A DNA stretch of 64,000 bases from Minisyncoccota bacterium (GTDB taxonomy: Bacteria; Patescibacteriota; Minisyncoccia; Phycocordibacterales; SW-6-46-9). The DNA lies in contig JBBDRP010000002.1 of the NCBI GenBank assembly GCA_040905385.1, positions 459,526 through 523,525 on the forward strand, in the 5' to 3' direction. Of this stretch, positions 622 to 34,592 are shown piece by piece. The position numbers and the translations under genes were made by a program. Position 1 is the stretch's first letter, and each line of letters opens with the position of its first letter. The notes below the pieces were generated by a model. That model saw nothing but the letters and a program-made list of their open reading frames with translations, made no database searches and had not been told where the DNA came from.

Positions 622-1755
622 ATGGAACTTACGAAAAGATACCCGAAATTCGGGCTCGTTATCGCAATCTTTACCCTCTTACTCCCTGTTCTCGTACAGG
701 CTCAGTATGGTTCTCACGGCCCTTACGGGGTTGGAGAGTTCAAAGAAGGAAAACACATACTTACAAAAGAAATGGAAACGCAGCTGAATGGCTTAGTTTC
801 TATGTTCGCACAAGAGTGTGCGAGGGGTAAAGTAATCGACGCAATTTCACACTCCGACAGCCTTCGATATAAAAACGTTTCGGAACACATGTCTAACCTG
901 TTGAATGCTAAATTAGCGTGGAGACGGGCTGATGAACCGATCCGGTATCTAGTGGATAAAGGAGTCGAGCAAGAATGCTTCGATGACATTCAGTGGAAAC
1001 CTGCCGACTCTAAAGATAGAGTTGTATCCTTTATGGTCAGACTCAGTAGAGATAAGCAAGCTGATTTAATTCTCGAGAACGAAGCAAGAATTGACTCAGT
1101 AGAAGCTGAAATCGCTGATCTGATTGAGAAAAATAAAGAACAGGACGAGCGTCTAGATGACCACCGAACGTGGATCGACGAGAATACTGTCTGGAATCAA
1201 AACCAGGATACAACACTGAACAATCATGAACAGCGCTTGCGATATCTTGAGAAGCAGAAGTGGGACGAGCAGCGAGATACTACAAGTATCGATGTTTCTG
1301 GCCATCTTGGTCTTAATGTCGAACACTTTGCCTCGCAGCTGGCACCGACGATTTCCGCCGGTGTACAGATTGGTCGTCTTGATTTGACTGGCTGGTACGG
1401 CTTTATGCCCAATACCGGAACAGTTGATCTCGATATCGGAACAGTCAATACCCGTCGTGAGACATACGGCGGCATGGCTACCTTGTATGTTCTTGATAAT
1501 AGTCGGATCTCTGTGGGTCCATCCATTGGGTGGGAGCACGGAGAAGATGCAATCGAGGGTCGTGGATCATACGTAAAAGTGTATGAATCCGCTCTCGTAG
1601 GAGCCTCAGCAGATATCAAGCTAATCGGCCCCCTGCATCTGAAAGTTAGTGCGGCTTACACACCTGTTATCAAGTCTTACAGTTACGACAACCAAGTACT
1701 GCAAGACGAAAGTAGCAACCTAAGACTCAGCGCTGGAATCAGCGTCACGTTTTAG
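622..1755 (+). CDS. secreted OmpA-like (peptidoglycan-associated) domain protein with coiled-coil and beta-rich C-terminus ending in Phe
   Basis: Signal peptide MELTKRYPKFGLVIAIFTLLLPVLVQAQ. Segment ISHSDSLRYKNVSEHMSNLLNAKLAWRRADEPIRYLVDKGV fits the OmpA/MotB C-domain consensus (GHTDxxG..N..LSxRRA..V..yL). Charged coiled-coil middle. The last about 150 aa show alternating hydrophobic residues and end ...LRLSAGISVTF. Confidence 0.75.
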   Translation: MELTKRYPKFGLVIAIFTLLLPVLVQAQYGSHGPYGVGEFKEGKHILTKEMETQLNGLVSMFAQECARGKVIDAISHSDSLRYKNVSEHMSNLLNAKLAWRRADEPIRYLVDKGVEQECFDDIQWKPADSKDRVVSFMVRLSRDKQADLILENEARIDSVEAEIADLIEKNKEQDERLDDHRTWIDENTVWNQNQDTTLNNHEQRLRYLEKQKWDEQRDTTSIDVSGHLGLNVEHFASQLAPTISAGVQIGRLDLTGWYGFMPNTGTVDLDIGTVNTRRETYGGMATLYVLDNSRISVGPSIGWEHGEDAIEGRGSYVKVYESALVGASADIKLIGPLHLKVSAAYTPVIKSYSYDNQVLQDESSNLRLSAGISVTF

Positions 1756-6508: not shown

Positions 6509-9127
6509 TTACAATACGTCCTTCAAATACTCCCCCGTTACCGAATCCTTGTTCTCTACGAGCTGCTCGGGTGTTCCTTTAGCAACAATTTTTCCGCCGT
6601 GCTCACCACCACCTGGTCCCATATCAATCACGTAGTCGGCATTTTTTATAATATCTAAATTGTGCTCGATCACCATCACGGTGTTTCCCATATCCACCAG
6701 CTCCTGCAGAATGGTTGTCAGCTGGCGCACATCATCGTAATGCAGACCAACCGTCGGTTCATCCAGGAGGTAAATCGTTTTTTTGGTATGCCGACGATAC
6801 AACTCCGAAGCGATCTTGATTCGCTGTGCCTCACCACCGGAGAGTGTGGTTGATGGCTGGCCCAGCTCTAGGTACGACAACCCGACGCGCACCAGTGTTT
6901 CCAGTCGGTCGGCAATCGGCGGAATATCCTCAAAAAACTCAGCCGCTTCCTCGATTGTCATCGATAATACCTGGAAGATATTCTGCCCTTTATACGTGAT
7001 ATCCAGTGTGTCCTCGGTAAATCGCCGACCATTACAGACCTCGCACGGCACGTGCACCGTTGGCAGAAAGTGCATCTCGATCTTCTGCTCCCCTTTTCCT
7101 TTGCAGGCCTCACAGCGACCGCCGGAGGTATTAAAAGAAAATCGACTCTTGGTAAAACCACGCACCTTCGCCTGCTTGGTCTCGGCGAAGAGGTCACGAA
7201 TGTAATCAAAGGCACTGGTGTATGTAGCCGGGTTAGAACGGCTCGAACGTCCAATTGGCGACTGATCAATCATTACTGCTCGGGCTAGATACTCACTACC
7301 GGCAAATTCGCTACAGTTCACGGGATCCTGTGCGGCCGTCCGGTCATGGTAAATACGCTTGAGGTTCTTGTATAGAATATCGTACAGGAATGATGACTTG
7401 CCCGAGCCGGATACCCCACTAAGTGCGATTAGCTTCCCAAGCGGCAACTGCACATTAAGCCCGTTAATATTATGACGCTTGCCGCCTTTTATACGTAAAT
7501 GACCATTATTCTCCGTACGACGCTTCTCTGGGTACGGGGTAACCTCCTTGCCTTGTAGATACTTCAGGGTTAGCGATTTTTCGGCCGCCTTGTCATCCTT
7601 CATAAGCTCTTTTATTGGGCCATTTGCCATCACCTCTCCGCCATGCACACCAGCCCGTGGTCCAAGATCCAGTAGATGATCCGACGCCTCGATGGTCTGA
7701 CGATCATGTTCTACCACCAGGACAGAGTTACCAATATCACGGAGATTATGAAGTGTGCTAAGCAATCTGTCGGTATCGCGCGAGTGCAGACCAATGGTTG
7801 GCTCATCCAGTACGTACAGCGCACCAACCAACTTACTGCCTAGCTGGCTGGCCAGCCGAATTCGCTGCGCCTCACCACCAGACAGCGTATTGGCTCGGCG
7901 ATCCAGGGTTAGGTACTCAACACCAACATCCGCCATAAAAGAAAGCCGATCGGAAATCTCGCGTGAAACAACATCCACCACCTTCTGCTTGGATCCCTCG
8001 ATCTCAAGATCTGTATACCAGTCAAGCGCTCCTTCAACGGTTAGAGCGACAAACTCGGATATATTCAGCCGCTCATCACCGGCCGTAAGAAAGACGTTCC
8101 GTGCGGCCTCACGCAGTCGGGCACCTTCACAGTCTGGGCACGGCTTACTACCACGAAACTCAGTGGTACCAAGTCCATTACAGGTCGGGCAGGCGCCGTA
8201 TGGCGAGTTGAAGGAGAAAAGTCGTGGCTCAATCTCCGGAAATGAGTACCCATCATACGGGCAGGTAAACTGTGATGACATTAATTTTCCGATAGTATTC
8301 CTTCCTGAGTCGCTTGCCCCGTAGCCGGAGCCTTGCGACGTGGTACCGGGGCCTATCCAAACCCGTACGAGTCCTTCCGCTTCATTAAGAGATCGTTCAA
8401 CTGCTTCGGCCAATCGATCACGAACGTCCCCGCCGTCGCGGGATTTACCCTTACCGGAAAATTCCTCTAATGAAATTGCGTCCACGAGGACATCGATGTC
8501 ATGCGTAGTGTGCTTTTCGAGCACGATCTGTTCACGCAGGCGCTTGGTCTCACCATCAATCAGAACCTGGCTGTAGCCACGCTCGAGTAGATTGTATAGA
8601 AGCTGGTAGTACTCTCCTTTCCGACCACGCACAATTGGCGCGTAGATGTAAACTGCCAGATCGTCGGTGCTTTTCACTTCTTCAAGTTTCTCCTCTACCT
8701 GCTCCCCAATCAGTCGCTGTATTTCCTCGGCCGACAGCTTCTCAATCGGTCGACCACACTCAAGACAGTGTGGCGTACCGACACGTGCAAACAGGATTCG
8801 CAGATAATCATACGTCTCGGTGATGGTTGCCACAGTTGAACGTGGATTATTTGATCTTGACGATTGATCAATCGATATAGCTGGGCTTAATCCCGTAATC
8901 TCGTCAACATCCGGGCGCTGCATCCGGTCTAAGAACTGGCGAGCGTAGCTAGACAGTGATTCAACGTACCGTCGCTGCCCTTCGGCAAAGATGGTATCAA
9001 AAGCCAGAGATGACTTTCCAGAACCAGATACGCCGGTAATAGCCACCAACTCACCACGCGGAATCTCCACGTTTATATCTTTAAGATTGTGCGTCCGAGC
9101 CCCCTTAATTTTTATACTATCATTCAT
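6509..9127 (-). CDS. uvrA: excinuclease ABC subunit A
   Basis: Two ABC ATPase modules: [14 protein letters not shown] and a second GVSGSGKSS. Zinc-finger Cys pairs. N-terminus [32 protein letters not shown]. The in-frame upstream GTG at 9172 is an alternative start. Confidence 0.9.
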
Positions 9128-9229
9128 ATTATTCTGAGATTGAAGCTCCTTTTTACGTAGGGAATATAACACAAAAGGCGCACGCAGATAAACTGTACGC
9201 CGATATGTTTACTTCAGATTATGTATGCT

Positions 9230-9619
9230 TTACTTGGTACCGTGTTCAGCAATTAGTTCTCCAGTACGCTTTACAATCTCGTCCAGTGAGTGATTAGCCT
9301 TGACAATAAAATCAACTGCGCCGAGCTCCTTACCTTTTTCCACGTCCTCTTTTTGGCCAAGGTTAGACAGGAATGCAACTGGAATATCAGAGACTGATTC
9401 ATCACTCTTAAGCTTTTCGAGTATCTCGAATCCATTCATACCCGGAAGAATAATATCAAGCATGATAATGTCTGGATCCTCATCGTGAGCCTTTCGCAGA
9501 GCTTCTTTACCCTCACCAGCATGTACAACTCTGAAATTAGCAGCCTTAAACTTCTTTACGAGTATCTCGATAAGAAAGCTATCATCCTCAACTAGCAACA
9601 ATGTGTATTGGTTATCCAT
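9230..9619 (-). CDS. response regulator, receiver domain only (CheY-like)
   Basis: LLVEDDSFL...DIIMLDIILPGMNGFEILEKLK; 129 aa with no output domain. Confidence 0.8.
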   Translation of the reverse strand: MDNQYTLLLVEDDSFLIEILVKKFKAANFRVVHAGEGKEALRKAHDEDPDIIMLDIILPGMNGFEILEKLKSDESVSDIPVAFLSNLGQKEDVEKGKELGAVDFIVKANHSLDEIVKRTGELIAEHGTK

Positions 9620-18678: not shown

Positions 18679-19359
18679 CTAAGACGATTGAATTTCTGCT
18701 TCTACTACCACCCTGTTTTCACGAGCACCGAAGGTAGTACAGGTTGAAATTGTTAACTTACCATATCCGGATTCAAACGAAACCAATCGATCATCCTCAT
18801 CAGCAATCTCAGTCGAGGTGACAACGTAAATCTGCTCCTGATCGTCTTCACCTGATACAACAATCTCATCCCCTACCTCCACATCGCTTAAGCCGTTAAA
18901 AGCTCGGTACGACTGATTACGAACCACTGGCAGCCGACTGGAGTGGCCAAAGAGAAACATCCGGCGCTCGCCACCAATACCACCAGAGCCTGGGTAGTGC
19001 ACGACTCCATCCTGCAGCGCGGCATCCAGCGTAGACACCGTAGCTTCAGCCGGAGTCGAGATATCGACATCGATTCCAACCGATTCAATTGCAATATGAG
19101 TCGGGCTAGCACCTACGATATCTTCATCAAGATCCTGGGGCGATGGGTTCGGTAGAATCGGTCGTGGCGGTCGCTTGTACGTAAGTCGATGCAGACTCGT
19201 TATCTCAGAAATCTGATTCTTTACCTGCTGATTAAACTCACTCACCTCGGTCGGAACCAATCCCAGCGATGATAAGAGAATATGCGTAGAGAAAAAAAGC
19301 ACCAAGATTAATACGATGGTGCCACGACTCATTCGTTTGTTTTCATCAGCAGTCTTCAT
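18679..19359 (-). CDS. sortase (transpeptidase)
   Basis: N-terminal TM. LFGHSS (His), LTISTCT (catalytic Cys, TLxTC motif), NRVVVEA (Arg). Confidence 0.75.
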   Translation of the reverse strand: MKTADENKRMSRGTIVLILVLFFSTHILLSSLGLVPTEVSEFNQQVKNQISEITSLHRLTYKRPPRPILPNPSPQDLDEDIVGASPTHIAIESVGIDVDISTPAEATVSTLDAALQDGVVHYPGSGGIGGERRMFLFGHSSRLPVVRNQSYRAFNGLSDVEVGDEIVVSGEDDQEQIYVVTSTEIADEDDRLVSFESGYGKLTISTCTTFGARENRVVVEAEIQSS

Positions 19360-21765: not shown

Positions 21766-24402
21766 TTAACTACTTATTACGTCATCCCATTTTTCTTCAA
21801 ACTTTTCGTTCACGTCCTCGGTATAGAATGGCATGCCGACGAGTCGATAATCTTTGTCTTCGTAAACTGTCTTCAGATCATACTCTTCTTCGATTTCTTT
21901 TAAAAATTCTTCCTTCCATTTCTCTCCTTCACGCAGGTGCTCACCTTTCGGCTCAATGAAAAGCTGATAATGCACGTCTTTCTTGCCAGAATCACGTAAA
22001 AATAGCACAAAGTCGGGCTCAAGTGGCTTACCGTCAGAAAAGCGATACAGCTGAAACAGCTTCTGATTTCTCAGCAAGTAAATCTCTTCGTACTTTTTCC
22101 GTAACTCCTGCTCAGCATCACTGATAAACTGCACCAAAGACTTCTCTTCTGATGTTCCGTAATTTTTGTCGTAGACGTACCAGTCCTTCTCATCAAGATC
22201 CATCTGATGAAGCGATTGTGACTCCCGCATTTCCACACCGCGCTGCTGATCACCAGATTCATCCAGCGATATCTTCATTTCCTTATCCTTCACAACCACC
22301 TTAATCGCCTTCGGCACAAACTTCTTTGTTCCTTTATACTCAGTAATCTCTTTCTTTACATTATCCAAAACTTGCTTCAACACCCCTTTAGCAATATCAA
22401 ACTTATCCTGCTGTGAAAGATCTCCATAGATACGCTCCTGTAACCCTTTCACAGAAACTTTAACTGAAGCCAGAAACGTATCACTAGAGATAAATTCTTC
22501 CCGGCTTACAAGCTGCGGAAAGCGCTTCTTGAGCGAATGAAAATCAAACCCCTCCAAGCTATCCATGGCCGCTCGGATAACGTGGTCACCTAGATCACTA
22601 AGCTTCATCGGTCTGCTGCTAACTTCTCGGACAACCTGATCTTCTTCAAACGCAGTCTGCTCCTGCGTATCTCCACTGTATATACGATATGAATACTCTT
22701 CAGCAGAGAAATCAAATTCATCATCGGAAAAAACATCCTCCGGCAGACGTTCACGTTTCTCATTCACCCATAAAATACCCTTCTTCCAGAACGGAGTTTT
22801 CTTTATCTCTTCTTTAACTTTTAGAAATACCTCTTTTGAATTATCTGGGATTATTCCTACATCCTTAAGTGCCTGCTTCAGCTCTGAAATATATCTCACA
22901 TTCGAAGCACTATGATAATGTAACTCCTCTAAAATCCGCAAATCATTATTAATATCTTCATCATATTTACGCCTTCCTCTTTCTTGATCTTTGTCGACTT
23001 GAAATGGGTAATAACGAGCCCCCCGACCAATCAGCTGTGCTTCCTGGACTGTAGTTTGTCCAGGAACACCCTCTCTCGCATCACGACTGTCATAAAGTCG
23101 AACAATGTCGAAAAGATTCAAAACATCCCAACCTTCATTAAGTGCCTCCACAGCAAAAACTACTCTGATTTCGTTATCTTCATCCTCAAGCGAGTTGATA
23201 ACTATCTGCTTTTCCCCTTTGTCTTTTTTTGTATCTGAATCTACAGAAATAGCTCTCTCTTCCCCAAACTCAACCTTTAATTCTTTTATCAAGTTTCCTA
23301 ATGCAACATTTTGTTCATTAAAATAAACAAAAGCTTCTTCAACAACCCCATCTGCCTTATTTCTTATTTCTTGTAAATCCTTGACAGTCAATTTATTCAA
23401 TTTTTCGTAGAATTTTTTTCTAAACTCAGATGAAACTACTTTAGTCTTAGGATCAGGAGTTGTAGGCGTATTTACATAGTTTGACTTAAACATCACTACC
23501 GGCTTAAGTGCAATTCCATGATCTTCCGCTACCTTACGTCTATACTGACTTACGACAATTGCCTGCAATGCTCGCTTAATTGCAGGTAAATCAGTTTGTA
23601 GTAACTGAATTTCTTTAGAAAATTTATCGATACGAAACTCCTTAAGAGAGTATCGAAATAATAACTTATCCTCATACTTCTCCGCTACAGATGAATGAGA
23701 TAAATTGGCGGTTGCAGTAAATTCCAACAAAATATTTTCCTTATTTAAATTAAGTATTTCAATAACAGTACCCTCCCAAGACCTCTCTTCTTTTTCTTCT
23801 TTTTTGGTCAACTTAGACTTCGTTAAAGCATCGAGATTATGTGCCTCATCTGCAATTAAAGCTGTTTTACTTCTGCTTAATTCATCAAAAGTTATTTCAT
23901 TCTCTTTAGGGAAATGACGCCTTCTATGTAAAGAAGATGTTGTAGTAAAGATAATATTGATATCATCCTTATTTACGCCTTCAAAATTATCAACTGATTG
24001 AATGTTAATATGCTTGCCATCGATCACGATTTGGTCATTAAAAAGATATTTATTTCCCGCAGAATTCAAGAAATTTTCCTTTGTCTTCTCAATAATATTC
24101 CCAAGTCGAGTAAAAAAGATAAAGTTTCGGTAGCCTCGCTTGTAGAGCTGGAGAATATTTGCCGCCATGACGAGCGTCTTTCCCGACCCTGTCGCCATCT
24201 CATACAAAAGTTGAGTCGGCTTCTGACGCAGATTTTCGTGATCCATATAGAAATCAAAGCGACCTATCGCCTCCTTCTGATACTTCCGCAGTTCAAAGTC
24301 AGACCGGAGATTATCTGCTACCACATCACCAACCCGTGATGTGAAGATATCCGGACCTTCTATATCATGATAGCTATTCAGTTTTTCATTCAATGTTGGC
24401 AT
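21766..24402 (-). CDS. res: Type III restriction enzyme Res subunit (helicase-nuclease)
   Basis: Motif I MATGSGKTLV, motif II IADEAHNL (DEAH), C-terminal PD-(D/E)xK (EPDFVLF ... FIEPKG). 878 aa. Confidence 0.8.
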   Translation of the reverse strand: MPTLNEKLNSYHDIEGPDIFTSRVGDVVADNLRSDFELRKYQKEAIGRFDFYMDHENLRQKPTQLLYEMATGSGKTLVMAANILQLYKRGYRNFIFFTRLGNIIEKTKENFLNSAGNKYLFNDQIVIDGKHINIQSVDNFEGVNKDDINIIFTTTSSLHRRRHFPKENEITFDELSRSKTALIADEAHNLDALTKSKLTKKEEKEERSWEGTVIEILNLNKENILLEFTATANLSHSSVAEKYEDKLLFRYSLKEFRIDKFSKEIQLLQTDLPAIKRALQAIVVSQYRRKVAEDHGIALKPVVMFKSNYVNTPTTPDPKTKVVSSEFRKKFYEKLNKLTVKDLQEIRNKADGVVEEAFVYFNEQNVALGNLIKELKVEFGEERAISVDSDTKKDKGEKQIVINSLEDEDNEIRVVFAVEALNEGWDVLNLFDIVRLYDSRDAREGVPGQTTVQEAQLIGRGARYYPFQVDKDQERGRRKYDEDINNDLRILEELHYHSASNVRYISELKQALKDVGIIPDNSKEVFLKVKEEIKKTPFWKKGILWVNEKRERLPEDVFSDDEFDFSAEEYSYRIYSGDTQEQTAFEEDQVVREVSSRPMKLSDLGDHVIRAAMDSLEGFDFHSLKKRFPQLVSREEFISSDTFLASVKVSVKGLQERIYGDLSQQDKFDIAKGVLKQVLDNVKKEITEYKGTKKFVPKAIKVVVKDKEMKISLDESGDQQRGVEMRESQSLHQMDLDEKDWYVYDKNYGTSEEKSLVQFISDAEQELRKKYEEIYLLRNQKLFQLYRFSDGKPLEPDFVLFLRDSGKKDVHYQLFIEPKGEHLREGEKWKEEFLKEIEEEYDLKTVYEDKDYRLVGMPFYTEDVNEKFEEKWDDVISS

Positions 24403-24412
24403 GGCTACGTAT

Positions 24413-25900
24413 TTAATTTCTTCGATAATTCACTTTAATAATAGGTTTATATCCTGCATTTTGAACCTCTTTTTTCCAATCGACTAATTTCATTAGAAAA
24501 ATAAGTGACTTAGTATCCGAAATGTTTTCTAGATCTTTCTTTTTATCTAAAACTATCCAAAGGCAAATATTCTTCACTTGCTTTTTTTGACCGTCAATTT
24601 CTATTTCATTATCATTGTGTTGTAACAACCTTAATGTATTCATCGATTGATCTACTACATAATTCATCTTTCCAGTTTGACCCACTTTGACAAAGTATAT
24701 TGTTTCACCTTTGTATAAATCCATCTTTTCAACTGAATACCTATCGCCAATTTGCTCTACAGTAGTGTGAGTGCTTAGATAATCATTATTCTCAAGCATT
24801 TCTATGAATTCATCCTCTCCTACTCCTGAAGATATATCATGTTCTGCGCCATACTCTAGGTCGATTTTATCAACTTCACTTTTTAAGGAATCTAAGTAAG
24901 ACTCATTAAATTTGTACCACCTTCCGTCAACCAAACAATTGCGTTCATCGTCAGAATAATCGAGTAATTCTTTTATGGATTTTGTAAACTGATTTCCAGT
25001 ATCTTTAAATACTTTCACTTTAATCTTTGAAAAATCACGAGGTATTTCCATATCATTAGATGACACAAAGTCCTGTAAATCTTTTATACTGATGTCACCA
25101 GCCTCTGACTCATTAACCTCCTGATAAACTTTATATAATTTATATCTATAATCTGACTGAAAAATAAAATTAACTCCCAAAACAGAGAATTCATCCATAG
25201 AAATATCTGCTTCCATGATTTTTTCCGCCAGTTTCTTATCTAGTTCTTCTATTTCACGTTCTTCCGTTATCTTTTGTGCTCTAGGAATGGAAAAAATCGG
25301 ATCCTTTTTTAGGTCCTTTCTAATATTATCTAAAACTTCAGGAAGTTCTATTAATGTAATATCGAGGCTGAATTTAGCAGAAGTTCCACAATGCACCTTA
25401 CTTCCATACTTTTCTTCATCATCTGGAATGCCTTTTAAATACCCTATAGACTCTCCACTATCAAACGTAATTATAGACTCAGAAATATAGCTGGTAATAG
25501 TCTTGCTTTTGATGCTCTTATAAAACTTTGAGTTTTTCATCTTTATCGACTCCGGATCAAGTATTCTTTCTGCAAAATTCAAACCGAAGTCCGGATCGCA
25601 AAACTGCTGTAAATAAAAATATGTTTTACCAAAAGAGACCACATAATACTCATCTTCTTTTTCAGCAACAAGAGCTCCGAATTGGGATTTATTTTTGTAA
25701 TCCCCCTGATCTTCAAGGAAATCTTCACATAAATCAAGCCACCATACCTCACTGGGATCCGGGTTCTTTGAGATGTAGAAAGTCATGGAATATCCTCCCA
25801 GATTGTTATTTTTTTGTTTTTTAAGACCTACTTTAGAAAACTTTTTAAATAAATCCTGTATATTCTCTTCTGAAATTTTGTATATATTAAATGTTGCCAT
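24413..25900 (-). CDS. uncharacterised 495-aa protein encoded between Type III mod and res
   Basis: No recognisable motif. About 30% GC. Start overlaps the mod stop by 14 nt. Ends 10 nt before the res start. Confidence 0.7.
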   Translation of the reverse strand: MATFNIYKISEENIQDLFKKFSKVGLKKQKNNNLGGYSMTFYISKNPDPSEVWWLDLCEDFLEDQGDYKNKSQFGALVAEKEDEYYVVSFGKTYFYLQQFCDPDFGLNFAERILDPESIKMKNSKFYKSIKSKTITSYISESIITFDSGESIGYLKGIPDDEEKYGSKVHCGTSAKFSLDITLIELPEVLDNIRKDLKKDPIFSIPRAQKITEEREIEELDKKLAEKIMEADISMDEFSVLGVNFIFQSDYRYKLYKVYQEVNESEAGDISIKDLQDFVSSNDMEIPRDFSKIKVKVFKDTGNQFTKSIKELLDYSDDERNCLVDGRWYKFNESYLDSLKSEVDKIDLEYGAEHDISSGVGEDEFIEMLENNDYLSTHTTVEQIGDRYSVEKMDLYKGETIYFVKVGQTGKMNYVVDQSMNTLRLLQHNDNEIEIDGQKKQVKNICLWIVLDKKKDLENISDTKSLIFLMKLVDWKKEVQNAGYKPIIKVNYRRN

Positions 25901-27845
25901 AAAATTCTTTATTTAGATCTTTGTCATCCTCACTGATTTCATATCGTTTATCAGCGATATCGCCATAGTTTACGTAGAGGTGGTTGTTATCAAGCACATC
26001 TAGGAGGAACTTTTGCATGTCTTCTTTAAGAAGATCATTGAAGCTTTCAGCTTCCTCATTGATTTTCTCCAGGTCAACCTGCCAGGAGAGAAAGCCGTTC
26101 TCCTGGATCTCCTTCCAGATCTTCTTAAGCTCAGATACCTTGGCTGACTTTATCTGCTCGCGATACTCCTGATTCGATTTTGCAAGCTCAGCGAATACAA
26201 CATCACCGCCACCCTCCCACTGAACATCAGAAGATACACCGCTCTCCTCTCCTTCAATTACATTCTTAAGACGAGATCTCATCTTTTTTATATGGCTACT
26301 TAATTGCTCCACCATAATATATTTACGAGACATTTTGTGAGCAACAGCACCAGTTGTTCCAGATCCTGCAAAAAAGTCCATTACAATGTCACCCTCATCG
26401 GTAGCCAAATCTATAATTCTTTTTAAAAGCTTTTCTGGCTTTTTCCCAAACCTTAGGTCAACTCCTCCTTCGTTTGCTAGATTATTGATACCGATATCAG
26501 TCCATATATCACCAAGTGCTTCGACTGGAGTTTTTTTACCTCTTATAGTTTGCACCTTATCTGCAGCAAATACCACATCCTCTCCCTTATAAACAAAGTA
26601 ATATGAATCATCTAAATTTGTCACTTTGGAAAACTTATCACTAGGCAAATTTGAATAATCTGCACCTCTATTACGAGCTGTTCGAAATATCTTATCGGCA
26701 TTATCTAATTTAAACTGATTCACCTGAGACTCATTATTTGAATCTATGTCTGCACGCTTTATTGCTTGATTTAATGTGATTATCTCCCATTTTTCACAGT
26801 CTTTTTCATTAAACCCTTTTTTATTAATAAAAGAAGTGTATCTATCAAGCGCATCATCCCAAGATGCAGGGCTGTATTGAGGTGTGATTTGTGGATTATC
26901 TGACTTTGAATACATTAGTATATATTCTTTTATTTTAGGAATTTTTTTATCCTTATGAGCCATTTTTACACCACTTAAATAAGACATTTGAACGCAAATA
27001 TTTGTCTGAAAAGATTTTCTCTGAAACACTTCATCACATAAATTCTTTAAATAACTTTGTTCAATGTCATCTATTTGTATAAATATAAATCCATCATCCG
27101 AAAGAAGTTTATCAGCCACATCTAATCTATTCCTCATAAATGTTAGCCAAGTAGAGTGATTAAAGCTATCATTATAAGAGAAGTTGTCTCTATCTGTGTT
27201 GTAAGGTGGATCAATATAAATAAGCTTCACCTTGCCCGCAAAACGCTCTTTGAGTGAATGTAGCGCCAGCAGGTTATTGCCCTGGAGAACAAGATTCTCC
27301 TCCAGATTACCCTTATCATCTTCCTTCAGCTCCTCAACCTCATGCTCGCCGTCTTTGTCGATTCGCTGCCAGTCTGTGAGTGCCTTTGGTTCGAAAAGGC
27401 GGCGGATCTCATCCGGAGCCAGAGTTTCGTTCCAGAAGATTTCATCACGCTTGGCGTCTTCTTTGGTCTGTCCACCTTCAAGCACGCAGTCTTTGTATGG
27501 CCAGGAGAGCACAACTTCGTTTGAGCGGGAGATAAAGTCGCCGCGATCATTTGTCAGCCCGATCTTGTTTTTGAAGCTTGTGTAGCTGTCGGGGAGAAAA
27601 TCCTTGTTGTGTACAAAAGAGGTGAAGGCATCGACATCAAAAATAGTCGTATCACCGATATCTTTAAAGAACCGCTCCTTTGTCGCCTTATTTTTCAAGA
27701 GTAGCGTAATTAGATCCTCATCAAGCTTTCGCGCCAGCTCGGCAACCTTATTCTTCAGAAGTTTGTCATCCTCAGACACCAGCCGCTCATCCTGGCGGAG
27801 GATATCCTTAATCTCATTCATTGATTGTTTCTGTGATTGCGGCAT
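25887..27845 (-). CDS. mod: Type III R-M Mod subunit (N6-adenine DNA methyltransferase, beta class)
   Basis: Motif IV LIYIDPPYNT precedes motif I VMDFFAGSGTTG. 652 aa. Confidence 0.85.
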   Translation of the reverse strand: MPQSQKQSMNEIKDILRQDERLVSEDDKLLKNKVAELARKLDEDLITLLLKNKATKERFFKDIGDTTIFDVDAFTSFVHNKDFLPDSYTSFKNKIGLTNDRGDFISRSNEVVLSWPYKDCVLEGGQTKEDAKRDEIFWNETLAPDEIRRLFEPKALTDWQRIDKDGEHEVEELKEDDKGNLEENLVLQGNNLLALHSLKERFAGKVKLIYIDPPYNTDRDNFSYNDSFNHSTWLTFMRNRLDVADKLLSDDGFIFIQIDDIEQSYLKNLCDEVFQRKSFQTNICVQMSYLSGVKMAHKDKKIPKIKEYILMYSKSDNPQITPQYSPASWDDALDRYTSFINKKGFNEKDCEKWEIITLNQAIKRADIDSNNESQVNQFKLDNADKIFRTARNRGADYSNLPSDKFSKVTNLDDSYYFVYKGEDVVFAADKVQTIRGKKTPVEALGDIWTDIGINNLANEGGVDLRFGKKPEKLLKRIIDLATDEGDIVMDFFAGSGTTGAVAHKMSRKYIMVEQLSSHIKKMRSRLKNVIEGEESGVSSDVQWEGGGDVVFAELAKSNQEYREQIKSAKVSELKKIWKEIQENGFLSWQVDLEKINEEAESFNDLLKEDMQKFLLDVLDNNHLYVNYGDIADKRYEISEDDKDLNKEFYGNI

Positions 27846-27847
27846 AT

Positions 27848-28984
27848 TTATTCGCTAAAGGCTTTAAGATAGCGCTTGTACTCGAAGCGACGATCGTAGT
27901 TTTTATCTTTGTCTTGTTGCTCTAGTATACCAATATCAACTAATACATCCACAAGCTCGTTGGCAGTTGTTCGTGATAAACCAGTCCAGCTCTCTACTTT
28001 TTTTACACTCACGATCGGCAGCTCATACAGCTTGTTTAGCACAGTTGTTGCATTATCAGCCCGGCGACCGAGCGACTCGGCTTTTTCGAGGTCTTCTTTG
28101 CGAATTTCATGAATAGTGCGCGCAGTTTTAATAGCATCTTCAGATACTTCGGCAATACCACGCAAGAAAAACCGTAACCATGACACGAAATCACCGTCAT
28201 TATGATAGCGGTTAATCAAATCAAAATACCCTTCGCGGTGTTTGCGTAGGTATGCTGATAAATACAATACCGGCTTGTCCAAAAGCTCGAGCTGACACAG
28301 ATAAAATGTAACAAGTAGCCGACCAACCCGCCCGTTGCCGTCAAGAAACGGGTGAATTGTCTCGAACTGAGCATGAGCCAGTGCGGTTTTAACAAGTGGA
28401 GAAGTAACATCATCAGCATGGAGAAATTCTTCTAGGTCACTCATGGCATCTCCAATATGGTCAGCTGGAGGCGGTACAAATTTAGCAGTATCAGGTGAGT
28501 TACCGCCGATCCAGTTCTGACTGGTGCGAAATCTTCCTGGTGTTTTTCCTTTTCCGTCCTCTGTCCCCTCCATCAAAGTTTTGTGGATTTCTTTTATCAA
28601 ACGACTTGATAGCGGCAGATCAGACAATTTACCCAACCCCTCATTCATTGCCTGAATGTACTTACTAATGTTCTCGACATCTTTAGGAATATCTCCCTCA
28701 ACATCAGCATCGACTTTAATAGAGTCGGCCATAGTTGCCATGGTGCCTTCAATCTCAGCAGAATAAGCTGCCTCTTTTCGTACGTACATAAAAATGAAAA
28801 AATCAAGATCTGGAAGAACCTGTGTAATGCCGTCTAACTTACCAAGCGAAAAAAATGCGCGGTCATGCAAAGACTGTAAATCTTCATCAAGAGTAGGAAG
28901 ATTCTTGGGTGGAAACTTTTTAGGTACAAACGCCGTGTACCCTTGGGGTTGTTTGATAAATGTGCCGATATCCATAACATTCAA
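27848..28984 (-). CDS. fic: Fic/DOC family protein (class II, N-terminal inhibitory motif)
   Basis: HPFLDGNGRVGRLL Fic motif. SAEIEG inhibitory helix motif near the N-terminus. C-terminal winged helix. Confidence 0.85.
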   Translation of the reverse strand: MNVMDIGTFIKQPQGYTAFVPKKFPPKNLPTLDEDLQSLHDRAFFSLGKLDGITQVLPDLDFFIFMYVRKEAAYSAEIEGTMATMADSIKVDADVEGDIPKDVENISKYIQAMNEGLGKLSDLPLSSRLIKEIHKTLMEGTEDGKGKTPGRFRTSQNWIGGNSPDTAKFVPPPADHIGDAMSDLEEFLHADDVTSPLVKTALAHAQFETIHPFLDGNGRVGRLLVTFYLCQLELLDKPVLYLSAYLRKHREGYFDLINRYHNDGDFVSWLRFFLRGIAEVSEDAIKTARTIHEIRKEDLEKAESLGRRADNATTVLNKLYELPIVSVKKVESWTGLSRTTANELVDVLVDIGILEQQDKDKNYDRRFEYKRYLKAFSE

Positions 28985-29047
28985 TGTTTACTTGTTAGGA
29001 TTATAGCACTAAAACCTAACAAGTGCAAAGGGGTTGTTAGGTTTTAA

Positions 29048-29683
29048 TCACGTTACACTCTCCCACTCTGATTCAGATACAATAACGTGATCAACTAACG
29101 AAATACCTAAAATTTCCCCGGCTTTTTTGAGCTTTTTAGTTATTTCCTTGTCTTCCTGTGATGGCGTAGTGTCTCCCGACGGATGATTATGCGCCAGGAT
29201 TATACTGGACGCCCGATCGGTCACCGCATCAGCAAAGACTTCTCGTGGGTGCACCAAGCTTGCATCAAGTGTACCAACAGAGATCGTGCGCTGACTGATA
29301 ACGCGCCCGGCGCCATCAAGGCTGATGGCTTGTAAGTATTCTCGCTTTTTATTGCGGATATCTGAAAGCAATGGTAAGACATCTTTTGCTTTCTGAATGC
29401 GGGTCACGTCCTCGCGCACAAAGCGATTCGCGATTTCTAGCGATGCCAAGATGCGCGATGCACTGGCTGAACCAACGCCTTTTATCTCCAAAAGCGCATC
29501 TAATGTAATAGCATCTGTGCCACTTTCTAGTTTTTCTAAAATGGCTTCGGCGATATCTGCCACCAGCGAGCCAGGAACACCGCTACCAACGACAATTTGC
29601 AAAAGCTCTGCATCCGACAGTGCTTTTACACCCTTTGCTTCAAGCTTTTCACGAGGGCGATCAACTTTTGGAACATCCTTCAT
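29048..29683 (-). CDS. radC: RadC-like JAB domain protein
   Basis: ILAHNHPSGDTTPSQEDKEIT JAMM motif. N-terminal HhH. Confidence 0.8.
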   Translation of the reverse strand: MKDVPKVDRPREKLEAKGVKALSDAELLQIVVGSGVPGSLVADIAEAILEKLESGTDAITLDALLEIKGVGSASASRILASLEIANRFVREDVTRIQKAKDVLPLLSDIRNKKREYLQAISLDGAGRVISQRTISVGTLDASLVHPREVFADAVTDRASSIILAHNHPSGDTTPSQEDKEITKKLKKAGEILGISLVDHVIVSESEWESVT

Positions 29684-29840: not shown

Positions 29841-30665
29841 TTACTCCAATAGATCAAGTGTCAAGCAGTGTGGTCCACCACCCCCTTTAATAAACTCGGA
29901 AAGGTCGATCGTCTGTACCCCATACCCTAGCTTCTCGAGGGCTTGCTGAGTAGCTGTAGATACTGATGTAGTAATAATAGTATCATCAACCTCTATAATA
30001 TTTGCGCCAAAATATTCTGTTTCCGCATCAAGCTCAATAACTGTGCGGCCGTCCCATAATTCAGAAGAACGCCATGTTTCACCCAAATGCAATGCGGGTG
30101 GATACACCAACACTCCACCTTGACACAAAAACGATACTGCCATATCTAAATGCAGATACTTGTCATTTGGTAGACGTGCAAATATCACCTCAATCGTGAG
30201 ACCAGTTTGTTGGCGATAAAATTCAATAAGCCATTGGTATGCCTCCACATTTTCACCTGGTTTGTAGCCCGCCACCAATGTCTGTTCATCTCGCCACATC
30301 AAGTTACCGCCCTCTAAATGCATACCTCGAGGTAACTGGTGGATTTCGTAGTCATGTTGCTTGAACCATCGCTGCAACAACTTTGGCTCGCGCATTCCCC
30401 GTGGACCAACGCTTCGTAGCAGTAATACTTTTCCAGGAGCATAAACCCAAGCATTGTCACGTGTATACACCATCGCTGAATCTCGAGCAGAAGGTTCGAT
30501 TTCCTGGACAACACCACCTGCAGCCACAATGGCGCACCGTAAGGTGCGCCATTGTTCCATTGCGAGATCTCGATCTACCGTCTCGTCGATGGTCAGCCAA
30601 GCGTTGAAGAGAAAGTGAGCATCAAAGTAATCAGGTGGACATAATAGAAAAGCACGCTGCTCCAT
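29841..30665 (-). CDS. DDAH/amidinotransferase-superfamily enzyme (dimethylarginine dimethylaminohydrolase-like)
   Basis: C-terminal SEFIKGGGGPHCLTL resembles the DDAH catalytic-Cys end (SEYRKIDGGVSCMSL). YLHLDM His motif. Start taken at MEQRAFLL (ATG complement at 30663-30665), 7 nt after the upstream stop. About 58-60% GC. Confidence 0.7.
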   Translation of the reverse strand: MEQRAFLLCPPDYFDAHFLFNAWLTIDETVDRDLAMEQWRTLRCAIVAAGGVVQEIEPSARDSAMVYTRDNAWVYAPGKVLLLRSVGPRGMREPKLLQRWFKQHDYEIHQLPRGMHLEGGNLMWRDEQTLVAGYKPGENVEAYQWLIEFYRQQTGLTIEVIFARLPNDKYLHLDMAVSFLCQGGVLVYPPALHLGETWRSSELWDGRTVIELDAETEYFGANIIEVDDTIITTSVSTATQQALEKLGYGVQTIDLSEFIKGGGGPHCLTLDLLE

Positions 30666-30672
30666 ATTACGA

Positions 30673-31197
30673 TTACTGAATCGGATCTTGTAGAGATACA
30701 CCCTTAGTAGACTGTAGCTGCGCATCTAATTCCGGTGTATCTCCTGGTTTTAGCATGCGGGCACGCACGCGACGCAGGGCACGACGAGCGTAGCGACCCT
30801 GCACTTTACCTGCTCGGGCACTTATTCGAGCCCGGACACGTCCCAAAACATACCGTGGACTCACTCGACGTCCAAGTCGTGGAACTGCTCTTGCAGACGC
30901 CCGAGCACCTGGCATCAACATAAACATACCCATCACACCAGCTACAACTGCTACGCCTATACGCCGCGACAGCAAGCGTACCTTATCCATGAGCGTTGGA
31001 GTGGCATCCTGTACCAAACGAGGGTCCATTCCCAAGTTCACAAGTTGTCGAGCATCACCCGATTGCACAGCCTGAAGCTCTGTATCTGTAAGGCCATAAC
31101 GCTTCTTAACGGCCGCGGCATCATCACGCAACTCTTGTTGTAATGTAGAACTGAAATATAATTTCTTAATAACACGATCAAGTACTTTATTTTGCAT
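30673..31197 (-). CDS. Nif11-like N-terminal domain protein with TM segment and extremely Arg-rich C-terminal tail
   Basis: VLDRVIKKLYFSSTLQQELRDDAAAVKKRYGLTDTELQAV resembles the Nif11/RiPP leader pattern (sLQekL...akaaGfsit.edL). Tail ARASARAVPRLGRRVSPRYVLGRVRARISARAGKVQGRYARRALRRVRAR. GC-rich. Confidence 0.55.
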   Translation of the reverse strand: MQNKVLDRVIKKLYFSSTLQQELRDDAAAVKKRYGLTDTELQAVQSGDARQLVNLGMDPRLVQDATPTLMDKVRLLSRRIGVAVVAGVMGMFMLMPGARASARAVPRLGRRVSPRYVLGRVRARISARAGKVQGRYARRALRRVRARMLKPGDTPELDAQLQSTKGVSLQDPIQ

Positions 31198-31404
31198 AGT
31201 AGAATTAAATTACTTATATGTCTTAAGTTTAGCATGTAGTAGCAACACTAAGCAATCCGCTATAATGACTTTTGCAGTTTGATTGGTTGAGAAAAATTAC
31301 ATGACATTATTGAAATATAATTATTTAAACGAAGACAAAATAGTGAAGAACAAGTCAAAGCTAAGATAGCGTCGCAAATAGACGCGTTATTTTTTCTCTC
31401 GCAG

Positions 31405-31836
31405 TCAGCCTTTATTTTCTTGAAGTATTACTACGGGGTCGGAGTTTGGCGGTTCAACTGTAGTAAAAAGATTTTTCTCATGAAAAATAACTACAGGATC
31501 GCTGTTTGGCGGTTCAACTGAAACCAGAACCCCGTCACCACCAGCCTGTATGTCAATCCCAACAGGATTTGTAAACTCATGTTCAGGAGAGCTTTCACCC
31601 TCACGAAATTCCGGGTCAGCGTGACCATCTCCGTCGTCATCACTATCCTCGTCACGAACAGAGGTCGGCTTATTCGAGCGCGTCGCGTTATAGTCTTGAG
31701 CTTGCGTCGCTCCTGGTGGTGAGTTTACTTTAATTATTTCGCCAACTTTTGAGGCCTCGGCCACGGGTATGGTAGAAATTACCAGACCCACAAAAGCGAA
31801 CGAGACGATACTAAATATTGCTATTTTTCTATACAT
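31405..31836 (-). CDS. secreted protein with internal 20-aa repeat, sharing a module with the tandem-HU protein
   Basis: Signal peptide. 60-nt direct repeat encoding TVEPPNSDPVVI twice. Shares YNA(T/S)RSNKPTS plus an Asp/Gly-rich tract with the 31917 gene. Confidence 0.55.
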   Translation of the reverse strand: MYRKIAIFSIVSFAFVGLVISTIPVAEASKVGEIIKVNSPPGATQAQDYNATRSNKPTSVRDEDSDDDGDGHADPEFREGESSPEHEFTNPVGIDIQAGGDGVLVSVEPPNSDPVVIFHEKNLFTTVEPPNSDPVVILQENKG

Positions 31837-31916: not shown

Positions 31917-32894
31917 TTAATTGACGGACTTTGAAAGTTCTGCGCCGGCTTTGAACTTAACCACGTTCTTAGCGGCTATTTGAATTTCTTTGCCTGTTTG
32001 TGGATTGCGACCGGTGCGTGCAGATCGTTTGCTGATACTGAATGATCCGAAGCCAATGAGTGAGATTCTATCACCCTTTTTGAGCGCTCTCGTTGTTGCG
32101 TTAGTAAAACCTTCAAGTGCTTTTTTGGCATCCGCTTTTGAGAGACCTGCTTTACTTGCGATCTCGTCGATAAGTTCAGCTTTGTTCATTCTTTCCTGTA
32201 TATCATTGTCGTCTCCATCATCCCCGTCGGCATCAACGGGTGATTTAGATGTAGGTTTGTTTGAACGAGACGCGTTATAGCCTTTAGCAGGTGCTACGTT
32301 CTCTCCGCTATTAGATGAACCGTCGTCATCAATACCCTTGATGCCGGGGCCGCCTTTAAATTCGTCAATTTTGCCTCGCGTCGCCTCTGTTTCGCTATCA
32401 CGCCCACCGTGACCAATTTGTGGATTGCGTCCGGTGCGTGCAGATCGTTTGCTGATACTGAATGAACCAAATCCAATCAATGAAATACGATCTCCTTTTT
32501 CCAAAATTTCCGTTGTTACGTTAGTAAAACCTTCAAGCGCTTTTTTTGCATCGGCTTTTGAGATCTTTGCGTCACTAGCGATCGCGTCGATAAGTTCAGC
32601 TTTGTTCATTCTTTCCGATATATCGTCATCCCCGTCGTCACCTCCACCTGATATCTCCGGAAGTTTCTTTTTAAGAATGCGCATGATTTCGTCGCCGTTA
32701 GGAGTATCCTTTTCTGCCTCCACAGCTTGCTTTCCTCTAACAAACTCACCGATTGTTCCGCCGTCATCTCCTCGTTCTTTTTCTTCAGGAGGATTATCAA
32801 TTGAGCGAGCTTCTGCGCTCATAGGCGTCGTGACGGTTAATACTCCAACAATCACAAGAACAATAGCGAATGTAAAGTAATAAAAATATTTCAT
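31917..32894 (-). CDS. secreted protein with two tandem HU/IHF-type DNA-binding domains
   Basis: Signal peptide MKYFYYFTFAIVLVIVGVLTVTTPMSAEA. Two copies of MNKAELID(A/E)IASxAxxSKADAKKALEGFTNxTTxxLxKGDRISLIGFGSFSISKRSARTGRNPQ (HU fold). Confidence 0.75.
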   Translation of the reverse strand: MKYFYYFTFAIVLVIVGVLTVTTPMSAEARSIDNPPEEKERGDDGGTIGEFVRGKQAVEAEKDTPNGDEIMRILKKKLPEISGGGDDGDDDISERMNKAELIDAIASDAKISKADAKKALEGFTNVTTEILEKGDRISLIGFGSFSISKRSARTGRNPQIGHGGRDSETEATRGKIDEFKGGPGIKGIDDDGSSNSGENVAPAKGYNASRSNKPTSKSPVDADGDDGDDNDIQERMNKAELIDEIASKAGLSKADAKKALEGFTNATTRALKKGDRISLIGFGSFSISKRSARTGRNPQTGKEIQIAAKNVVKFKAGAELSKSVN

Positions 32895-33521: not shown

Positions 33522-34040
33522 ATGAATTTCTCAGAACAATTTGATGGTCCAGATAAGCCAGATGATGACAACGAAAACCATGACAGCTACTTAAGCGCAG
33601 AATTTCGGTATTGGGCCTCAGAATTTAAAGATGAGCTTGAGATGCACGGACTGCAGTGGATCCAAAAAGGTGGTGGTGACAGTGATCAATGTCAAGTCAG
33701 GATCAAAAAGGAGTCAGGTTTTGGTAGACAATTTACCGGAGAGGGACAAGGTTGGAAGGAGGCGTTTGAAGATGCTATGGATAAGTACCGCAAACATCTG
33801 GAAAGTCGACCTAAAACCATCTCAGCCAAAGGTCTTTCCTCTGATGAGATAGAGAGAGTGCAGAAGGGTGGAGAAAAAGAATATAGAAAAATAGCGTACG
33901 AAAAAGTACGTGATGCAGCGAAAGTCTCAAAGTTTGGTGAGGTAGAAACAAATTTTTTAAAAATATTTCTTAATGATTTAAAAGAAGAAGATTACGAGAT
34001 TGCAGAAAAAGTAGACAAAGAACTTAAAAGTAGAAAGTGA
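33522..34040 (+). CDS. hypothetical protein (acidic N-terminus)
   Basis: 172-aa ORF. Confidence 0.55.
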   Translation: MNFSEQFDGPDKPDDDNENHDSYLSAEFRYWASEFKDELEMHGLQWIQKGGGDSDQCQVRIKKESGFGRQFTGEGQGWKEAFEDAMDKYRKHLESRPKTISAKGLSSDEIERVQKGGEKEYRKIAYEKVRDAAKVSKFGEVETNFLKIFLNDLKEEDYEIAEKVDKELKSRK

Positions 34041-34151: not shown

Positions 34152-34592
34152 ATGAATAAATCATCTACAATATATTTCTACGGTGGTGGCTATAACTGTC
34201 TCTCGAACTTTGCCGCCTATCAAGTTGTGTATGACGATAGAATCTGGATGACGGCCGAGCACGCTTATCAGGCACATAAGTTCAATGACACAGATATTCA
34301 GGATGAAATTCAGTCCTGTGCCTCAGCCCATGCTGCCAAACAATTAGCCCATGAATACGGAAACCACGTACGTGAAGACTGGTTTGATATAAATGTTGAA
34401 ATTATGGAGAACATACTACGCGCAAAGCTTTCTAAGCACCAACACATTCAGCAGAAGTTACGGGTGTCAGCGGAAAAAGAACTAGTTGAAGACTCTGATG
34501 ATGAGTTCTGGGGTTGTGGTGAAAATAGAAACGGGAAAAATATGCTTGGAAAACTATGGATAAAGTTACGAAATGAGCTACTAAAGACATAG
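34152..34592 (+). CDS. NADAR (YbiA-like, DUF1768) domain protein
   Basis: IYFYGGGYNCLSNFAAYQVVYDDRIWMTAEHAYQAHKF ... DDEFWGCGENRNGKNMLGKLWIKLR. Confidence 0.75.
   Translation: MNKSSTIYFYGGGYNCLSNFAAYQVVYDDRIWMTAEHAYQAHKFNDTDIQDEIQSCASAHAAKQLAHEYGNHVREDWFDINVEIMENILRAKLSKHQHIQQKLRVSAEKELVEDSDDEFWGCGENRNGKNMLGKLWIKLRNELLKT

Follow-up and report, generated by a model that had tools for sequence, protein, structure and literature searches.

A recurrent gene pair joins a pentein-fold hydrolase to an arginine-tailed NHLP-clan partner and suggests leader-guided arginine modification

A Two-Gene Module in a Paceibacterota Contig

Within a 64,000-nucleotide stretch of a metagenome-assembled Candidatus Paceibacterota contig (JBBDRP010000002.1, 784 kb; contig positions 459,526 to 523,525; hereafter, the window), two adjacent genes on the minus strand encode an enzyme and an arginine-rich partner, for which we come to favor a role in protein modification. 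Gene 1 (30673..31197) encodes the partner, the putative substrate: a 174-residue protein listed by NCBI as "hypothetical" (WD335_02405; the NCBI protein is 100% identical). Gene 2 (29841..30665) encodes a 274-residue hydrolase with the fold of guanidino-modifying enzymes, which NCBI annotates as an "arginine deiminase family protein." From its N terminus, the partner comprises a putative five-helix docking domain of the NHLP clan and LigA/SonA type (residues 1–65; 31003..31197), a linker ending in RLLSRR (residues 66–79), a 19-residue hydrophobic segment defined by hydropathy, IGVAVVAGVMGMFMLMPGA (residues 80–98; 30904..30960), an Arg-rich tail that is the proposed modification site (residues 99–149; 30751..30903), and an acidic/polar C-terminal segment ending in LQDPIQ (residues 150–174; 30676..30750), all on the minus strand. 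The window carries a single copy of each gene.

The two genes are closely spaced: the 7-nucleotide sequence TCGTAAT (30666..30672, minus strand) separates the TAA stop of gene 1 from the ATG of gene 2. An earlier note on this DNA had described this spacing, the 174-residue length of the partner, and a tail about one-third arginine; all three hold, 17 positions of the 51-residue tail being Arg (33%) and 1 Lys, with none acidic. A longer open reading frame for gene 2, from 30725, also exists; the start at 30665 is preferred because homologous N termini align at MEQRAFLLCPP and because the NCBI protein has 274 residues. A promoter-like site upstream of gene 1 (31320..31347, minus strand) comprises TTCACT, a 16-nucleotide spacer, and AATAAT, a weak match to consensus, and a sequence scan found no terminator-like site between the genes. 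Matches in promoter and terminator scans of the pair were no commoner than in shuffled sequence.

In base composition the module lies close to its surroundings. The same note had given it 58–60% GC against a backbone of 45–50%; we obtain 48.0% for the module (gene 1, 50.5%; gene 2, 46.5%) and 45.2% for the window. The Arg-coding stretch (30751..30903; 153 nucleotides) alone reaches 62% GC, the rest of the module lying at 44–47%. This local excess is due to CGN codons, which make up 24 of the 25 Arg codons of gene 1, and is therefore no sign of foreign origin. Horizontal transfer argued from GC content was rejected, the module being close to the window in this respect.

Conservation of the Gene Pair

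The earlier note had called for a survey of the pair in other genomes, and there it recurs: in each of the 21 loci for which DNA was readable (comparison set: the window, L001–L003, and L010–L025), enzyme and partner are neighbors in the same orientation. Both gene orders occur—partner first in the window, L001, L002, L010, and L011; enzyme first, often with overlap, in L003, L012, L013, and L014—and the two genes either lie 7–17 nucleotides apart or overlap. The linked enzymes form 10 clusters at 70% identity, and the pair spans at least two phyla, the window belonging to Paceibacterota and one locus to Gaiellaceae (Actinomycetota).

Close homologs of gene 1 are few: only three were found among 5.8 billion clustered proteins, to which an alignment-based search added seven. 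A partner-family profile searched against 1.84 billion representative proteins gave 409 metagenomic protein clusters with E ≤ 1e-3, 72 of them with E ≤ 1e-10; among the 147 newly listed proteins inspected, 77 combined the N-terminal domain (N-domain), the hydrophobic segment, and the Arg-rich tail. A narrower alignment (A5) of N-domains from the wider family, used as query, led to one genome locus, the metagenome-assembled Gaiellaceae genome, and to 10 soil-type metagenome loci; the enzyme lies directly upstream of the partner in all 11, in truncated form in L021. Reference genomes gave a single match among 185,579 species representatives.

Two of these loci are irregular. In L021, one open frame (749..1468) joins the first ~60 enzyme residues to a full partner; we considered a true enzyme–partner fusion and judged an internal deletion or assembly artifact more probable. 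The enzyme gene upstream of the partner in L014 also appears disrupted.

The genes flanking the pair vary: SET-domain and VanY-like genes in L001 and a GGDEF/EAL gene in L003, while L015 and L020 have glyA with upp, and L023 and L024 have molybdopterin and mutase genes. A conserved third gene is absent from the pair loci, and neither a protease nor a transporter recurs. Distant enzyme homologs with 30–33% identity (P0013 and P0015) lack a partner; their neighborhoods are metabolic, with a saccharopine-dehydrogenase-N gene or an amino-acid ATP-binding cassette transporter alongside. The strict co-occurrence of enzyme and partner across the 21 loci rules out chance adjacency.

Linked Enzymes Retain Catalytic Residues and Replace Substrate-Backbone Binders

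As judged from its predicted propeller fold and aligned catalytic residues, gene 2 is a member of the guanidino-modifying (pentein) superfamily (Pfam clan CL0197). Its AlphaFold2 model (predicted local distance difference test, pLDDT, 91) superposes on ArgZ (6JV0) with a template-modeling score (TM) of 0.88 and on Pseudomonas aeruginosa DDAH with a TM of 0.79–0.81; ArgZ and AgrE are its closest solved structures (profile E = 4e-75). A neighbor-joining tree places the 18 enzymes that are linked or carry the signature in a clade of their own, with the ArgZ-type dihydrolases as sister group.

Gene 2 lies above threshold for Pfam arginine deiminase (ADI; PF02274, 31.4 bits) and below it for DDAH (PF19420, 20.3 bits; threshold 23). 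Its best NCBIfam match is arginine dihydrolase (NF052232, 133.8 bits; cutoff 450), followed by the Mycobacterium tuberculosis-type DDAH (122 bits; cutoff 300); the DDAH models NF045658/59/60 score 122, 63, and 36 bits against cutoffs of 300–450. The ArcA model TIGR01078 reaches 27.7 bits against a cutoff of 489 and covers the C-terminal 58 residues only, and gene 2, at 274 residues, is shorter than ArcA with its helical insertion domain (~410 residues). Scores below the NCBIfam cutoffs place gene 2 in no curated equivalog. The families of known peptidyl-arginine deiminases, PF03068 and PF04371, gave no match to gene 2 at E ≤ 0.1.

All linked enzymes retain the catalytic triad (Cys267, His172, and Glu/Asp118 in window numbering) and the guanidino clamps Asp70 and Asp174. 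The Cys267 codon, placed by alignment and checked, lies at 29865..29867 (minus strand), and the protein ends in ...SEFIKGGGGPHCLTLDLLE, so the C-terminal catalytic Cys described in the earlier note is present. The unlinked homologs (P0013–P0110, n = 98) also keep triad and clamps, with Asn at the Asp70 position in an ArgZ-like subgroup. Residue roles were transferred by alignment from studies of DDAH1 and NnhA; the numbering of the human DDAH1 sequence in the alignment reproduced Asp73, Asp79, Arg98, Asp127, Arg145, His173, and Cys274 of PMC10958460.

The positions that hold the substrate backbone differ sharply between the two sets. In DDAH1, Asp73 binds the substrate α-amino group and Arg98 and Arg145 bind the α-carboxylate (PMC10958460), within a pattern of backbone binders general to ADI and DDAH enzymes (PMC11659421). 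All 16 linked enzymes have Ala, Pro, or Glu at the Asp73 equivalent, where 89 of 98 unlinked ones have Asp, and the Arg98 equivalent is Gly in 16/16 and Arg in 98/98, respectively. At the Arg145 position, linked enzymes carry a remodeled "KPG" loop, with Gly in most and Arg in none; Arg stands there in human DDAH1, ArgZ, and P0013–P0075, the displayed rows from which this column was read, as distinct from a count over all 98. The window enzyme has Ala64, Gly90, and Gly137 at the three positions. The DDAH1 Asp130 equivalent shows a parallel split (Asn in 17/17 linked, Asp in 98/98 unlinked). With the backbone binders replaced and the catalytic residues kept, the clade thus retains guanidino chemistry and has lost its hold on the free amino-acid backbone. 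By alignment, this is the loss that a switch to peptidyl-arginine would predict. The same Asp/Arg residues are absent from NnhA, which is not an amino-acid binder (PMC11659421).

These features bear on the possibility that gene 2, as its NCBI annotation would suggest, is an ordinary metabolic enzyme for free arginine (ADI, DDAH, or arginine dihydrolase) beside an unrelated gene, an outcome that the earlier note had itself named. The above-threshold Pfam ADI match, the best-scoring NCBIfam models, and the fold match to ArgZ are what such an enzyme would show, but its equivalog scores are far under the cutoffs (134 vs. 450; 122 vs. 300), all three backbone binders are replaced, and no arcB, arcC, or ornithine cyclodeaminase partner was found in the window. 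We give this reading almost no weight and regard both it and chance adjacency as effectively excluded.

The comparison with ArgZ also informs the likely product. The N-terminal domain of ArgZ/AgrE (6JV0, 6JUY, and 6LRF) shares with gene 2 the α/β-propeller, the Cys-His-Glu triad, and the HxD guanidino clamp, at 27–28% identity over the model superposition. Unlike gene 2, ArgZ binds free L-arginine, keeps the Asp and both Arg backbone binders, and is fused or adjacent to an ornithine cyclodeaminase-type domain with no partner protein. At the position of ArgZ Asn71, all linked enzymes have Asp, as do the DDAH-type homologs in the alignment; PDB entry 6JUZ is, by its title, ArgZ(N71S) trapped on a reaction intermediate. 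Because Asp at this position is typical of single-step deiminases and is shared with DDAH-type homologs, which stop at citrulline, we favor citrulline as the product, and not ornithine, though our confidence is modest.

The Partner N-Domain Is Related to the SonA Leader

The AlphaFold2 model of the partner N-domain contains five helices within residues 4–54 (pLDDT 84–91). The top Foldseek matches are SonA chains (target-normalized TM 0.73–0.76; root-mean-square deviation 2.0–2.1 Å; identity 27–30%), with LigA and DesB lower in the list (LigA TM 0.32). A profile built from wider relatives (alignment A4) matches SonA at E = 1.1e-9 and an 85-residue nitrile-hydratase-alpha-like chain (6LK7) at E = 4.6e-9, and returned no significant match to LigA. 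From profile and predicted fold together, we consider the N-domain a homolog of the SonA leader domain.

The earlier note was right to see a resemblance to leaders of the kind found in peptides made by ribosomes and modified after translation (RiPPs) and named the wrong family for it. Neither gene 1 nor any of its ten homologs matches Nif11 (TIGR03798) at E ≤ 0.1; a weak TIGR03798 match occurs only in P0206, a short unrelated family member. Matches across the family place the domain instead in the related NHLP clan, with a five-helix bundle of LigA/SonA type: NF038399 ("Os1348 family NHLP clan protein") is matched by 9 of 11 partners (best E = 2.6e-16), TIGR04509 ("NHLP-related RiPP peptide") by 6/11, Pfam LigA by 10/11 (best E = 2e-6), and Frankia_peptide by 7/11. 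NF038399 and TIGR04509 are domain-level models with no assigned chemistry. When six relatives were scanned singly against NF038399, five passed its cutoff of 40 (56.5, 54.9, 51.5, 42.5, and 41.6 bits) and P0184, at 39, fell below it.

The five-helix "borosin binding domain" (BBD) of SonA is its leader and the main determinant of SonM binding, and structural homologs of this domain cap dioxygenase active sites (PMC8429565). Both known roles of the fold therefore involve binding a partner enzyme.

The second of these roles underlies the main rival to a substrate function. The partner would then be a non-substrate, LigA-like subunit that caps or membrane-anchors an enzyme for a small guanidino compound with no free α-amino-acid moiety; agmatine, guanidino acids, and guanidino lipids are examples. 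The prevalence of Pfam LigA matches, the presence of LigA and DesB among the fold matches, and the precedent of the dioxygenase caps all fit, as does NnhA, which has lost the same Asp/Arg residues with a non-amino-acid substrate. SonA, a true substrate, is nevertheless the closer relative by both profile (E = 1e-9, against no significant match for LigA) and fold, and two properties of the tail described below go unexplained: its preference for Arg over Lys across phyla and GC contents, and the retention of the Arg-rich stretch in P0117 and P0118, which have no hydrophobic segment. We consider this rival unlikely.

A Hydrophobic Segment Precedes a Tail Rich in Arginine

The earlier note had described the partner as a membrane protein with one transmembrane helix. 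A 19-residue hydrophobic segment is indeed present; it looks equally like a signal peptide or a membrane anchor. In 106 family members, the median length of the uncharged stretch is 22 residues, and its order is a Leu-rich core, then Pro/Gly, then Ala at −4, −3, and −1; a charged residue comes next, Arg in 75%. Net charge averages +2.4 over the 10 residues before the segment and +4.4 over the 15 after it. By residue order, the segment looks like the h- and c-regions of Sec signal peptides. An Ala-x-Ala arrangement (−3,−1) was observed in 100 of 106 members against 94.7 expected in same-residue shuffles, which is not significant, so the signal-peptide-like reading rests on positional residue order only. 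With both flanks positive, topology is not readable from the sequence.

Even where the genome is rich in Lys, the tail favors Arg over Lys. In low-GC members, R/(R+K) is 0.61–0.86 in the tail and 0.31–0.42 in the N-domain of the same protein; for the L010 enzyme it is 0.25. No Arg-to-Lys exchange occurs among the four closest gene 1 homologs, and P0117 and P0118 keep the Arg run and an acidic "EPIDL" end with no hydrophobic segment. By composition, the tail appears to be selected for arginine and not merely for positive charge. The C terminus is also conserved in character: the closest relatives end in DPIQ, DPIE, or DPVE, and endings of the type P-[IVF]-[DE] occur in the wider family.

Several family members depart from this architecture. 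Short variants of 83–100 residues (P0117, P0118, and P0224) have no hydrophobic segment and still carry the Arg run and end in "EPIDLL"; directly before P0117 lies a 265-residue gene with no Pfam annotation. Other NF038399-type members differ from gene 1 in having neither hydrophobic segment nor Arg tail: P0206 is one, and in P0213, P0216, P0225, and P0227 (280–380 residues) the NHLP-clan N-domain is followed by Asp/Gly/Thr-rich repeats of "GTRAVHD" type. Paired Cys residues lie by the acidic C-terminal motif in P0134, P0148, P0166, P0181, P0182, and P0217 (for example, CPGDICIDVDG, CDDCIVIAID, and CEFKCEGFELVP), which hints at a further conserved C-terminal element.

A Proposed Leader-Guided Modification Unit

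On balance, we think it probable that the pair is a self-contained protein-modification unit in which leader-guided hydrolysis of peptidyl-arginine takes place in the partner tail, probably to citrulline. Its basis lies in the linkage of the genes, the homologies of both proteins, the remodeled active site, and the composition of the tail; from these we infer that the N-domain docks and that the tail is the substrate, and we infer the product. As a Cys-His-Glu hydrolase of pentein fold that we place in the cytoplasm, the enzyme descends from free-arginine dihydrolases. By analogy with SonA and SonM, the partner N-domain would dock on the enzyme, and the docked enzyme would then work along the tail, hydrolyzing Arg side chains, with citrulline the likely product. 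Up to ~17 positive charges would be removed and the charge of the tail largely erased; any effect of that loss is speculative. The proposal in the earlier note that the enzyme modifies an Arg-rich, RiPP-led neighbor thus gains from linkage, from the loss of backbone binders, and from leader homology; its Nif11 label and its GC island fall away, and citrullination is its conjectural part.

Several considerations weigh against this proposal. The first is topological: with the N-domain and the enzyme in the cytoplasm and the hydrophobic segment crossing the membrane, the tail would end up outside, where the enzyme could not reach it, except by acting before insertion. The loss of backbone binders would be expected equally from a switch to peptidyl-arginine and from a switch to a small guanidino substrate other than an α-amino acid. 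LigA-type domains serve as non-substrate enzyme subunits in LigAB dioxygenases. Gene 1 itself scores 21.9 bits (E = 1.4e-4) on NF038399, for which the cutoff is 40, and the structure of the tail is predicted at low confidence (pLDDT ~50). As to the product, the part played by ArgZ Asn71 is presumed here, partly from the title of entry 6JUZ.

A variant of the proposal addresses the ambiguous hydrophobic segment, and we rate it as distinctly improbable: deimination-gated export, in which the partner would be a pre-protein whose topology signals conflict and from which a citrulline-rich peptide with a conserved acidic C terminus is released. The signals would conflict because both flanks of the signal-peptide-like h-region are positive. 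The docked enzyme would turn tail Arg into neutral citrulline, and only then would Sec translocate the tail; signal peptidase would cleave at the Ala-x-Ala-like site, leaving the docking domain behind. Export through the general Sec and signal peptidase machinery would explain why neither a protease nor a transporter travels with the pair. If this variant is correct, the pair would represent a RiPP-type pathway with no need of a dedicated protease or transporter, and a third independent origin of peptidyl-arginine deiminase activity, ranging from the Paceibacterota, a candidate phylum with small genomes, to soil Actinomycetota.

Returning to leader-guided modification in general, the closest architectural parallel is the split borosin SonM–SonA (7LTR, 8T1S, and 9CH7). 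There, too, the precursor has a folded five-helix N-terminal leader (the BBD, annotated LigA) that provides most of the enzyme binding, after which SonM modifies the C-terminal part iteratively. Unlike gene 2, SonM is an S-adenosylmethionine-dependent backbone N-methyltransferase of unrelated fold, and SonA, unlike gene 1, is a protein of ~70 residues with neither a hydrophobic segment nor an Arg-rich tail. As regards a borosin pathway, no methyltransferase is present at the window locus, where the adjacent enzyme has a pentein hydrolase fold.

A chemical parallel comes from peptide arginases of the OspR family, which remove guanidino groups from Arg of NHLP/Nif11 precursors under leader guidance (PMC12703449). 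These enzymes have the binuclear-Mn arginase fold and release urea to leave ornithine, whereas gene 2 is a metal-independent Cys hydrolase. To our knowledge, bacterial peptidyl-arginine deiminases (PADs) comprise only two lineages, each modifying single residues, and we know of no leader-docking partner for either citrulassin PAD or PPAD. Both lineages—PF03068, with citrulassin PAD, and PF04371, with Porphyromonas PPAD—belong to the guanidino-modifying superfamily and yield citrulline (bioRxiv 10.1101/2020.07.16.207027). Citrulassin PAD differs from gene 2 in being encoded away from its substrate and in modifying a single Arg.

Full-text literature searches found no description of an enzyme–partner system of this kind. 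We infer that the unit carries out a leader-guided, RiPP-like modification in which the enzyme lineage is new and the architecture of the substrate unusual. If so, it would constitute a third bacterial peptidyl-arginine deiminase lineage, derived from free-arginine dihydrolases and equipped with a dedicated substrate of ~15–25 Arg. A folded leader of SonA/LigA type would then be seen to recruit an enzyme class unrelated to methyltransferases. The change of substrate would be a clean switch, with three backbone-binding residues lost and the catalytic residues kept, and this residue-loss signature could be used to re-annotate metagenomic "arginine deiminase family" genes.

Genomic Neighborhood

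On one side, as the earlier note had stated, the pair adjoins an AT-rich restriction-modification island. This defense island (21766..29683, minus strand; 37% GC) contains a Type III restriction subunit, res (21766..24402), a DUF6119 protein (24413..25900) situated between res and mod, the Type III methylase mod (25887..27845), SoFic (27848..28984; PADLOC, 365 bits), and RadC (29048..29683).

This setting raises the idea of a toxin–antidote or defense module, in which the enzyme would deiminate cellular or phage proteins and the Arg-rich partner would act as decoy or inhibitor. Adjacency to Type III restriction-modification genes, SoFic, and RadC suits it, and the genes are tightly coupled or overlapping in the manner of toxin–antitoxin pairs. 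It is only the window neighborhood that favors such a reading: elsewhere the pair keeps housekeeping company (the genes listed above for L015, L020, L023, and L024), PADLOC has no match for gene 1 or gene 2, and a folded leader-type domain joined to a hydrophobic segment would be an unusual antitoxin design. We hold this reading to be very improbable.

Upstream of gene 1, two proteins encoded on the minus strand share the motif YNA[ST]RSNKPTS. The nearer (31405..31836; 143 residues) has a signal-peptide-like N terminus and the repeat VEPPNSDPVVI, present twice, and matches no Pfam or NCBIfam model. The other (31917..32894; 325 residues) begins with a hydrophobic signal or anchor, after which come two tandem HU DNA-binding domains (PF00216) with acidic Gly-rich linkers between them; by sequence, this double HU protein looks like an exported or membrane-anchored form, unusual for the HU family.

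The window has a sortase gene (18679..19359, minus strand) no more than ~11 kb from the pair, and L001, the closest related contig, has one ~3 kb from its pair (8744..9370); this proximity is probably a coincidence of cell-envelope gene content. On the plus strand, a NADAR-domain protein (34152..34592) directly follows a 172-residue protein (33522..34040) with a faint DUF4326 match.

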